Shown here piece by piece: positions 5,222 through 30,444 of a stretch of 64,000 nt of DNA. Position 1 is the first letter of the stretch. Every line of letters starts with the position of its first letter. The position numbers and the translations under genes were made by a program. Source of the stretch: Octopus vulgaris (taxonomy: Eukaryota); assembly GCA_951406725.2 (NCBI GenBank), contig OX597814.1:105648001-105712000 (forward strand), read 5' to 3'. The notes under the pieces were generated by a model. That model was not told where the DNA came from. It saw only the letters and a program-made list of their open reading frames with translations, and made no database searches.

Positions 5222-5804
5222 ATGGACCATTAGTCAGCGAAAGAGGGAGAGAGAGAGAGAGAAAGAATGAGACAGTGAAGGTGGCGTGTTATTAAAGAGA
5301 TATTCGCATAAATGCTGCCATCTTTAACTCTTTTATGATAGGTTAGAAATCAATTAAGAAAACAGTTAGCGGATATCTATGGCTGAAACCTCCATCCCAT
5401 TGGCTACTTGGTTATCGGTAGTGCGGCGGCGAAGGATTGGTGTTTGCCTTGTGTCCAAGGTCGTTTCATGCGGCTGAACTGGTTTTCAATAACGCTTGCA
5501 ACACACGCACACACACGCACGCACACGCACGAACACGAACACGCACACACACACGCACACACGCCCCACACACACACAATCTATTTTCTGCCTCAGAACA
5601 CTCTCTTGCAAGGTGTTGGTGAGGGCCCTGATTTACTGCGCTACGTTTTGTTTTTTTACAGCAGAAGAGACGAACCGAGTTTGTTAAAAGATTTAAAGTA
5701 GAAATAACGAAATGTAGTATGAGCAACTTTGACCACTTACGATTACGAAATTATGTACGAGTGTGTGTTTGTGTGTGTCTGTGTGTGTGTATACGTATGT
5801 ATTC

Positions 5805-5850
<46 letters not shown>
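5222..5850 (+). repeat. ~620-bp local segmental duplication, copy 1 (paralogue 54591-55210); continues at 7661-7704 after the insertion
   Basis: Near-identical sequence; ORF track gives the same peptides (MVIGSAAAKD..., MLILHFVIST...) at both loci. Confidence 0.95.
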
Positions 5851-5852
<2 letters not shown>

Positions 5853-5972
5853 ACAATCAAGGAACGGCCATAATAGGCCATTCACCCACTAGAAATAACA
5901 GCCAAAGCTTCAACCGCAAATAAAAGTTAATTCTGTAAACCAGGAGAAAATTTAAAAAACATTTACCCTGTA

Positions 5973-6079
5973 ATTTCTTATACGATATACCGTTTCATCT
6001 GCTGATTAATGGTAAACTAACCTGATTAAATTAAATCAAGCCAATCTTCCACAGGCCCTCAGATTCATCAGTAAGAAAT
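5973..6079 (-). ncRNA. Type I hammerhead ribozyme, copy 1
   Basis: Minus strand: AUUUCUUA-CUGAUGA-AUCUG...CAGAU-GAAA-CGG UAUA UCG-UA^UAAGAAAU. 8-bp stem I, 5-bp base of stem II, stem III, GUA cleavage triplet. Confidence 0.85.
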
Positions 6080-6465
6080 AGCCCAAGTCGGAACAGATAT
6101 TTTCACGAGGCATTTCCGACCTTGCCAAGTTTATATCTGACCTAAAATTTTCAAATCGTCGCACTCGCGCCAAATTTATCGGCAGCAAATAAATATAAGC
6201 CGTCGATTCCATTACGGAATTAACCAGAAAATTCATAATTAATCAATATAGGGTGGCAAAAAAAAATTTTGTAGAATTCTTTTGCCACCAGCGGCCTAGT
6301 AGGAAAAAATTAAATAGTCATAGACCATTTTTAAGTTTAACATCAACAATCAAGGAACGGCCATAATAGGCCATTCACCCACTAGAAATAACAGCCAAAG
6401 CTTCAACCGCAAATAAAAGTTAATTCTGTAAACCAGGAGAAAATTTAAAAAACATTTACCCTGTA

Positions 6466-6572
6466 ATTTCTTATACGATATACCGTTTCATCTGCTGATT
6501 AATGGTAAACTAACCTGATTAAATTAAATCAAGCCAATCTTCCACAGGCCCTCAGATTCATCAGTAAGAAAT
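6466..6572 (-). ncRNA. Type I hammerhead ribozyme, copy 2
   Basis: Same motif, 493 bp from copy 1. Confidence 0.85.
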
Positions 6573-6964
6573 AGCCCAAGTCGGAACAGATATTTTCACG
6601 AGGCATTTCCGACCTTGCCAAGTTTATATCTGACCTAAAATTTTCAAATCGTCGCACTCGCGCCAAATTTATCGGCAGCAAATAAATATAAGCCGTCGAT
6701 TCCATTACGGAATTAACCAGAAAATTCATAATTAATCAATATAGGGTGGCAAAAAAAATTTTGTAGAATTCTTTTGCCACCAGCGGCCTAGTAGGAAAAA
6801 TTAAATAGTCATAGACCATTTTTAAGTTTAACATCAACAATCAAGGAACGGCCATAATAGGCCATTCACCCACTAGAAATAACAGCCAAAGCTTCAACCG
6901 CAAATAAAAGTTAATTCTGTAAACCAGGAGAAAATTTAAACAATTTAAAAACATTTACCCTGTA

Positions 6965-7071
6965 ATTTCTTATACGATATACCGTTTCATCTGCTGATTA
7001 ATGGTAAACTAACCTGATTAAATTAAATCAAGCCAATCTTCCACAGGCCCTCAGATTCATCAGTAAGAAAT
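6965..7071 (-). ncRNA. Type I hammerhead ribozyme, copy 3
   Basis: Same motif in the third monomer. Confidence 0.85.
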
Positions 7072-7324
7072 AGCACAAGTCGGAACAGATATTTTCACGA
7101 GGCATTTCCGACCTTGCCAAGTTTATATCTGACTTAAAATTTTCAAATCGTCGCACTCGCGCCAAATTTATCGGCAGCAAATAAATATAAGCCGTCGTTA
7201 ATTCCGTAATGGAATCGACGGCTTATATTTATTTGCCCGATAAATTTCAGTAATTTAATCAATATAGGGTGGATATAAACTTGGCAAGGTCGGAAATTTT
7301 GTAGAATTCTGTTCCACTTGGGCT

Positions 7325-7431
7325 ATTTCTTACTGAAGAATCTGAGGGCCTGTGGAAGATTGGCTTGATTTAATTTAATCAGGTTAGTTTACCATTAATC
7401 AGCAGATGAAACGGTATATCGTATAAGAAAT
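7325..7431 (+). ncRNA. Type I hammerhead ribozyme, copy 4 (inverted arm, CUGAAGA variant)
   Basis: ATTTCTTA 7325-7332, CTGAAGA 7333-7339, ATCTG/CAGAT stem II, GAAA 7408-7411, GTA 7421-7423, TAAGAAAT 7424-7431. Confidence 0.85.
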
Positions 7432-7939
7432 TACAGGGTAAATGTTTTTTAAATTTTCTCCTGGTTTACAGAATTAACTTTTATTTGCGGTTGAAGCTTT
7501 GGCTGTTATTTCTAGTGGGTGAATGGCCTATTATGGCCGTTCCTTGATTGTTGATGTTGAACTTAAAAATGGTCTATGACTATTTAATTTTTTCCTACTA
7601 GGCCGCTGGTGGCAAAAGAATTCTACAAAATTTTTTTTTGCCACCCTATATTGATTAATTATATATATATATATATATATATAAATATGTATGCATATAT
7701 ATATGCATGTGTATCTTTTTGTCTTGCTCGCTTACCTTCAGGTGTTTGCTAAATTTTCTTGAGAACAATCCTTTCTTAGAGGTAAGACCATAGGGGTCTA
7801 CCTCTAGCATAGTAGATGTCCACTTTGTGTTCATCCCTCTTATGTGTATGTAATATAATTTTTCTGTATCTTCAGATTTTTCAACATGCTAGACCACTGG
7901 TTTTAAATTGATATTAATCAAATTAATATTCAATTTTTC

Positions 7940-29380: not shown

Positions 29381-30249
29381 ATATATACATATATGTATGT
29401 ATGTATGTGTATGTCGTTCTAGCGTTTTCATCTCATTCCATATTTCCTGATCGATATTGCTATAATCCATAATACGACCTAAATGGAATCAGATGTATTC
29501 CCAGACATAGTTTTTTTCACTTTCTATCGCTTAGTCACAAGAGGAACGGCAACAGGCCTTGACCTTTTGCAGGACCTCTCAGAATAGCGCGTCGAAAGGG
29601 GTCTGAGGAAAATCTATGACTCATGGCTTAGCCCCAAACCAAAAACTTGGTTGTAATCCTTGCAACACACGCTGATATCTCTCCCCCATGAGTTGATATC
29701 GTTCATCTCATGAAGGTCTCCCCTTTCCATCAGTGTTATCTTTCTTTGAAGCGTATCGTTAAAAAAAAAAAATTCCGCCAAAGTGCTGCACATTCATAAC
29801 GAATCATAATCGAACTTTTTTTTCAACCATAGGCTCCTAACTTCGGCTGTCCTGGTTTCTGGGTGACCATCAGTCTAATCCTCGCTCACTTCAGACAACC
29901 TTTCACACATTGTGATTAGAAACCGCTCTTCCAAAAGTGTTTAATTTTCACGCAAGACTACATAGGGGATTAGAGTAGGCAATGTAATCGACACCAGTAA
30001 TTAACGTGAACATAATTTATTGTCCTAGGATGTATAAAAGCTAAAGCAAACCCGGGATTTGAAATTAGAACATAAGAGATGCAGCGAAAATATTACAACG
30101 GTCTCTGTCGAGTATTCCGACCCAGGCATTGAATAGTAAATAGATGTGTCTTCCTCTCAAGAGTAGAATAATTCTGAGGTGAAAGAAGATTCTTCAGTTT
30201 ATGGAGTCTTCTGTTGGGTCGGTTACCAGATTTCCATGGCAATATAGCT

Positions 30250-30444
30250 GAAATCAGAACATTACCCCTGAAAGGGATAACTGGGATCCCAACACTACCC
30301 CCGAAAGAGATAACAGGAATCACAACATTATCCCTGAAAGGGATAACTGGGTCCACAACATTACCCCCGGAAAGGGATAACTGGAATCACAATATTATCC
30401 CTGAAAGGGATAACTGAGATCCCAATATTGCCCTTGAAAGGGAT
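30250..30444. repeat. 33-bp minisatellite, ~6 copies, each with hairpin TTATCCC-TGAAA-GGGATAA
   Basis: Unit GGAATCACAACATTATCCCTGAAAGGGATAACT. Confidence 0.9.

Follow-up and report, generated by a model that had tools for sequence, protein, structure and literature searches.

The element at positions 5851–7660 of the window, the 64-kb stretch of the Octopus vulgaris genome analyzed here, belongs to a young, dispersed family of non-coding tandem repeats with hundreds of copies. The family is likely a non-autonomous retrozyme that is copied in trans by the reverse transcriptase (RT)/GIY-YIG protein of a Penelope-like element (PLE). A preliminary description had already proposed a retrozyme, and the proposal has held in every genomic test: tandem non-coding monomers lie dispersed in the genome, each unit has one type I hammerhead ribozyme, the GC content of the monomer is 35%, the insertions bear PLE marks, and a contiguous PLE ORF is present at none of 96 loci.

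The element is bounded on both sides by (TA)n tracts. Its left arm comprises 2.75 direct ~492-bp monomers and is followed by an inverted arm that extends up to 7660. The features read in the window are as follows:

5808–5850, no strand: (TA)n target on the left side, read as a TA repeat
5851–6343, minus: monomer 1 of the left arm, 493 bp; the 3′ end of the hammerhead-sense RNA is fixed end E1 (5851)
5973–6079, minus: hammerhead 1, CUGAUGA core from 6071 and N17 at 5981, placed by descriptor and covariation
Parts of hammerhead 1, minus: stem I 5′ strand 6079–6072, core 6071–6065, stem II including a 58-nt insert 6064–5997, GAAA 5996–5993, palindromic stem III 5993–5982, N17 5981, stem I 3′ strand 5980–5973
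6250–6290, minus: hairpin predicted from folds right before the E2 site, retained with altered sequence in sister families B and C
6296–6385, minus: long-range helix predicted from folds (6385–6378 with 6303–6296), enclosing the E1 site
6344–6834, minus: monomer 2 of the left arm, 491 bp, 99.6% identical to monomer 1
6466–6572, minus: hammerhead 2, CUGAUGA at 6564 and N17 at 6474, 493 nt from hammerhead 1
6835–~7197, minus: monomer 3 of the left arm, ~0.75 copy, shortened at the RNA 5′ side
6965–7071, minus: hammerhead 3, CUGAUGA at 7063 and N17 at 6973, 499 nt from hammerhead 2
7197–7316, no strand: inter-arm junction, a patchwork in which a snap-back piece lies beside short stretches of monomer sequence, some in one orientation and some in the other
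7316–7660, plus: clean part of the right (inverted) arm; the RNA 3′ end is fixed end E2 (7660)
7325–7431, plus: hammerhead 4, CUGAAGA at 7333 and N17 at 7423
7554–7660, plus: 109-nt "tail" between E1 and E2, terminal only on the right arm
7660–7704, no strand: (TA)n target on the right side, read as a TA repeat

The preliminary description had recognized the ~493-bp monomers, the inverted arm and the hammerheads, as well as hairpins that are indeed present in the monomer, but it had overlooked that the target is a (TA)n tract and that the ends are fixed at two points. It was also right that the element has no credible ORF: no stop-to-stop frame of at least 100 aa overlaps 5851–7660, and no tRNA was found in the element. 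The monomer folds strongly (z = −5.4), and in the helix around the E1 site a G-U pair is replaced by G-C in 35 of 90 loci, while its pairs differ in families B and C. The pieces at the inter-arm junction are likely the result of template switches. The two arms carry different common family alleles at two sites, N7 and 6338, and these two haplotypes suggest that two RNA molecules or a template switch contributed to the insertion. Elsewhere in the window, a 33-bp minisatellite of ~5.6 units with short CCC/GGG hairpins occupies 30244–30444.

A descriptor for type I hammerheads gave four matches in the whole 64-kb window, all within the element, in agreement with the earlier claim that each unit has a full core and a GUA site. 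The predicted cut between 5981 and 5980 likewise stands, N17 of the GUA being placed at 5981. The claim that all three stems close needs qualification: stems I (8 bp) and II (5 bp, enclosing the 58-nt insert) do, whereas stem III is weak as a monomer hairpin (−0.2 kcal/mol). The free minimum-energy fold of 5960–6090 mispairs the core, the hammerhead fold lying 1.8 kcal/mol higher. Among 3000 dinucleotide-shuffled monomers, one gave any descriptor match and none an equally strong one. The motif search suggested earlier succeeded with the descriptor and failed with Rfam 15, which returned nothing at the gathering score; of its 16 matches at E ≤ 10, none was to a hammerhead family. The insert in stem II is probably the reason.

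The genome (2.8 Gb in 227 contigs) contains 1084 candidate places for the family. Scoring of the best 40 gave 201 matches, and the full monomers at these loci are mostly 98–100% identical. Exact patterns occur 762 times for the hammerhead, 238 times for the E1 junction and 816 times for the E2 junction, with controls at 0; the E1 count is too low because an older subfamily differs at E1. Two samples were analyzed. Set 1 consists of the best 40 of the 1084 candidate loci and is biased to long, young copies; set 2 consists of 56 further contig-1 loci (from 59) selected by an exact E2 end alone, many of which are 87–93% identical to the window. The hammerhead core is intact in 129 of 130 copies, and the spacing from hammerhead to hammerhead is mostly 490–494.

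Variation in the ribozyme was scored with one call per locus in 74–78 loci. None of 826 calls at 11 core positions deviates. Core invariance taken alone is weak (per-site p 0.09 or 0.014), and the loci share ancestry; we therefore place the weight on the pattern of allowed changes. Position N7 takes all four bases (U in 32 loci, A in 22, C in 12 and G in 8), and the CUGAUGA-to-CUGAAGA difference between copies in the window, previously said to fall at a tolerated position, is thus a common allele. N17 is A in 64 loci and C in 14, with G absent, and the two sides of stem II change together, the outer pair being G-C in 45 loci, A-U in 27 and A-A in 2. Stem III is a 12-nt palindrome; at its center, in loop III, 45 loci carry the two bases AU and 32 carry GC, single-change forms being absent. 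These central bases pair only between two copies, in a dimer, with calculated energies of −13.6 and −17.5 kcal/mol for the natural AU and GC forms and of −10.6 and −7.1 kcal/mol for the single changes. The pattern fits selection on the ribozyme, and the hammerhead of each unit is probably self-cutting.

A passive satellite, amplified at the DNA level by unequal crossover and carrying a hammerhead that is dead or arose by chance, would account for the tandem units and for the mispaired free fold. It is a highly improbable explanation: the loci number in the hundreds and are dispersed, their outer ends fall at two fixed points and their inner ends vary, compensatory changes occur, and none of the 3000 shuffles matched as strongly.

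The anatomy of the insertions suggests a PLE-type enzyme. TA is found on both flanks in 82 of 95 family loci. The RNA 3′ ends of the arms face outward and terminate at E1 or E2, 109 nt apart, while the inner ends vary. Set 2 comprises 35 E2+E1 loci, no E2+E2 locus, three with E2 and an unclear end, and 18 with a single recognized arm, such that all 35 recognized two-armed loci have one of each fixed end per side. In set 1, 26 loci are E1+E2, two combine E1 with an end 4 nt off E2, and 12 have a single recognized arm. One exception, L037, is E2/E2 and contains an inverted copy of its flank; a second candidate exception is one facing E1/E1 pair on contig 4. The flank of L024 is likewise duplicated in inverted orientation (a LINE fragment of ~1.4 kb). 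The inverted flank duplications at L037 and L024 suggest fold-back copying of target DNA. Any target-site duplication, which in animal non-LTR retrozymes exceeds 4 bp where present, would be masked by the (TA)n, and a single 8-nt direct match was seen among the 95 loci.

Marks described for PLEs include partial tandems, an inverted truncated copy, insertion into (TA)n, and a 30- to 40-bp tail, which in many cases is confined to one of the ends (PMC8557442). The anole PLE protein acts in vitro on AT-rich DNA, nicking each strand, and two internal RT starts on the RNA define the tail (PMC11167929). The octopus insertions carry PLE-type marks, namely tandem units plus an inverted truncated copy, a one-end tail, and a microsatellite target.

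Comparison of arms bears on the nature of the template. Among 105 full copies, the average number of substitutions is 1.41 for monomers of one arm, 1.25 for those of opposite arms and 4.29 for those of different loci. Some variants are private to a single locus among those sampled: at L055, L057 and L035 they occur in every monomer of both arms, and at L025 and L036 in every monomer of one arm. The arms were compared at 61 of 67 loci, those left after comparisons with fewer than 60 shared columns were dropped: 28 loci have identical arms, 17 have a rare allele common to both arms, and at 13 the arms differ at a common allele. Of 88 multi-copy arms, 16 are internally mixed, some of them through alignment artefacts. 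The within-locus sharing agrees with a template on which a single monomer is traversed repeatedly, such as a circle, yet not at every locus; given the 13 loci with common-allele differences and the 16 mixed arms, one circle is not enough for all of them.

Inner ends were tested in 63 of 68 set 1 arms (two with an unclear start, one interrupted and two with an early alignment break were excluded), 50 of which were long enough for a test restricted to later passes, and in 91 of 94 set 2 arms (three unclear starts dropped). The first end window had been picked after viewing the data, and we therefore relied on a scan test. The best 36-nt window brackets the predicted cut in each set independently, with 22 ends observed against 7.4 expected in the 91 set 2 arms (scan p 0.0002) and, in the later passes of the 50 set 1 arms, 13 against 4.0 (p 0.007). 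With the two sets combined, 31 ends fall in the 30 nt before the cut (10.5 expected) and 14 in the 30 nt after it (9.5 expected). The pile-up is about threefold and spread over ~35 nt, partly beyond the cut, covering AT palindromes and stem I. It is a hint of cleavage in vivo; stalling of the RT at stem I or annealing at the AT palindromes could also cause it. The arms running past the cut make up 57% of set 2, which means that uncut or circular templates are also in use.

These data also bear on a model in which PLE-driven insertion starts from linear multimeric read-through RNA, partly cut or uncut, with no circles, and in which uniformity arises by gene conversion or from a few uniform active sources. 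The persistence of the pile-up in later passes and the existence of mixed arms speak for it, as does the behavior of the anole PLE in vitro, which used mainly unprocessed RNA (PMC11167929). We nevertheless consider it rather unlikely, given the locus-private variants repeated in every monomer of both arms (L055, L057 and L035) or of one arm (L025 and L036) and the arms that cross up to seven cut sites; moreover, truncation-prone linear copying would be expected to shorten arrays over the generations.

Part of the element is contained in 20 of 24 sequencing runs, all recorded as contigs and none as RNA. In the runs guessed to be RNA (X1, X2 and X10), clustered A>G or T>C differences account for 56 of 79, 41 of 60 and 8 of 12 differing places in window 5851–6834, some of them at hammerhead positions 5981 and 5993. 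In the large run X15, whose kind is not recorded, 17 of 38 differences are A>G or T>C and clusters are nearly absent. Such clusters resemble, and would fit, A-to-I editing of double-stranded arms; with no matched DNA and an uncovered flank control, they were not counted as evidence.

The genome offers candidate PLE partners, whose proteins Pfam barely detects. One young family encodes an intact 1310-aa frame with an RT, a Cys-rich linker and a GIY-YIG-like domain (L091–L100, e.g., L093:2763–6701); it has 8031 candidates, forms two-arm insertions in (TA)n with a ~56-nt tail, and has a 54% relative in the genome. A hammerhead-like motif with a CUGAUGC core lies upstream of its frame. A second young family with an intact frame is Neptune-like (781 aa; L161–L170, e.g., L163:2342–4687) and also has relatives. 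It features a hammerhead-like motif with a UUGAUAA core ~75 nt before its 3′ end (L163 ~5790–5890), possibly reflecting a U3–A8 swap. No sequence similarity to the monomer was found in the 1310-aa family, its 54% relative, or the 781-aa family and its relatives. The PLE beside L047 was considered as a parent and rejected, since (TA)n lies between the two and the PLE faces the element.

This search addresses the possibility that an autonomous PLE has the monomer as its terminal repeat (pLTR) and left the loci as its 5′-truncated insertions, the outcome that the preliminary description had named as fatal to the retrozyme reading. The insertion marks are all PLE-like, Xenopus retrozymes resemble pLTRs (10.64898/2026.07.22.740005), and our search is a sample of PLE families, with Naiad, Hydra and Poseidon types and the family beside L238 outside any specific search. 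Yet the arms continue into further monomers and never into an ORF: none of the 96 loci has an ORF with RT and GIY-YIG between pLTRs, as in an autonomous PLE, or any PLE ORF contiguous with the element, and the PLE coding pieces near 7 of the 96 are always separate. A profile of three families (A, the family in the window, and its sisters B and C) matched only separate retrozyme insertions at the 101 loci of the PLE search, and a short-stem-II version of the hammerhead gave a single match, to a rearranged copy. Families A, B and C, furthermore, are alike round the whole unit. The pLTR explanation is accordingly quite improbable; among the PLE families sampled, none has the monomer as its terminal repeat. 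Xenopus retrozymes have 21 PLE matches (10.64898/2026.07.22.740005), whereas no pLTR relative of the octopus family was found among the PLEs sampled.

Family B has a unit of ~485 bp and 3111 candidates (e.g., L100:492–924 and L101–L130), and in its hammerhead two A residues oppose each other where stem II begins at its base, the site being GUC. Family C (~500 bp, 269 candidates; e.g., L134:420–1020 and L179–L198) is older, with numerous decayed copies and cores, and has a GUU site. Pairwise identity among A, B and C is 47–53%, and the similarity extends round the entire unit. Both sister families retain the order of parts and the hammerhead core, the latter with different stem sequences and again a palindromic stem III; a hairpin likewise precedes E2, a helix encloses E1, and the two ends lie ~90–105 nt apart. 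Judged from these comparisons, the lineage may have long evolved as a structured RNA. Further type I hammerhead repeats with a long stem II, a palindromic stem III and GUA sites occur at L139:208–455 and L169:1633, and L138 contains short two-armed elements similar to the ends of family B.

An E2F-like TTGGCGC and a CHR-like TTTGAA lie 79 nt upstream of the hammerhead core (window 6150–6174, minus strand) and are kept in 71–72 of 72 loci; at the aligned position of the CHR-like hexamer, family B has TTTGAA and family C mostly TTCGAA. Their spacing deviates from the canonical 4 nt between CHR and E2F sites (motif definitions in PMC5716687). The pair is possibly a cell-cycle-linked internal promoter, which we regard as a lead only.

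Under the retrozyme reading, arrays would be transcribed on the hammerhead-sense strand, and neighboring hammerheads would pair via the palindromic stem III and cut after GUA or GUC to release ~492-nt monomers that become circles; the fold in this scheme is the one indicated by covariation, while cutting and circles are postulated. A PLE protein would then nick both (TA)n strands, each 3′ end priming at E1 or E2, one per side, in keeping with the observed end pattern; the enzyme is presumed. Copying of circles would yield the 1–7 matching units per arm and copying of cut linear RNA would stop near the cut, as variant sharing and the end pile-up suggest. The two cDNAs would finally be joined by microhomology or template switches, for which the window provides an observed patchwork junction. 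Both arms would usually derive from one template or from sister templates, the two haplotypes of the window notwithstanding. That only one of nine predicted Xenopus retrozymes cleaved in vitro (10.64898/2026.07.22.740005) counts against activity. The anole PLE hammerhead is protein-dependent and is dispensable for insertion in vitro (PMC11167929).

By every genomic feature that could be tested, except target-site duplications, which (TA)n would mask, the octopus family conforms to the animal non-LTR retrozymes, a class already described (PMC7229834; 10.64898/2026.07.22.740005). As with the retrozymes of coral, mussel, axolotl and other vertebrates, the units are dispersed, tandem, non-coding, highly self-paired and below 50% GC, have one type I hammerhead each, and share the genome with PLEs. 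The 493-nt unit, earlier placed at the large end for such elements, does exceed the 170–400 nt given for invertebrates (PMC7229834), as does the 492-nt family unit, but falls within a range of 51–972 bp (10.64898/2026.07.22.740005). A 58-nt stem II insert, mirror-image arms, insertion into (TA)n and two fixed ends further set the family apart; the word "inverted" occurs nowhere in PMC7229834, and in 10.64898/2026.07.22.740005 it is confined to the title of a reference, while "tail" does not occur there. Circles and cutting have been demonstrated for animal retrozymes (same sources), whereas the octopus family is known from genomic sequence. The literature covered, with most subscription papers, Dfam, Repbase and supplements outside its scope, contained no description of this family or of two-armed, fixed-end retrozyme insertions.

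With EN+ PLEs (Neptune, Hydra and Naiad; PMC8557442) and anole Poseidon (PMC11167929), the family shares partial tandems, an inverted 5′-truncated copy, a one-end tail, (TA)n targets, two internal starts and a hammerhead upstream of the starts. It differs from PLEs in having no ORF, a tail of 109 nt rather than 30–40 bp (PMC8557442), and up to seven full units per arm, and its near-strict rule of one end per side contrasts with the anole PLE in vitro, for which no start-site difference between strands was seen (PMC11167929). We suggest that the family works like a PLE passenger. Its hammerhead resembles the type I hammerheads that act as dimers in newts, axolotl and PLEs (PMC4209133; PMC7229834) in a weak palindromic helix III predicted to be stabilized by pairing of two ribozymes. 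It differs from them in a longer, 12-nt palindrome, a natural double change in dimer-only pairs, an extended stem II, and in being missed by Rfam 15.

A broader reading, which we offer tentatively as a possibility still short of an even chance, is that A, B and C form a long-lived lineage of protein-free RNA circles that parasitizes PLE proteins through nothing but its shape. The RT would act as an asymmetric dimer that starts on a single circle from two fixed sites, each serving one of the cut strands, with both subunits rolling round it. The 12-nt palindrome would have two roles: a dimer switch that controls cleavage, and a signal for RNA pairing by which two different molecules are at times brought into one insertion, as in the window.

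How animal retrozymes return to DNA is stated to be open in 10.64898/2026.07.22.740005, as is the route of PLEs to tandem and inverted insertions in PMC8557442. The octopus family, which is young and represented by hundreds of clean insertions, provides a testable template for both, with defined starts, a one-end-per-side rule, a natural compensatory pair in a dimer-only helix, and intact candidate PLE proteins. If the reading as a parasitic RNA circle is true, the genomic copies would record cleavage in vivo together with the second-strand step of PLEs.
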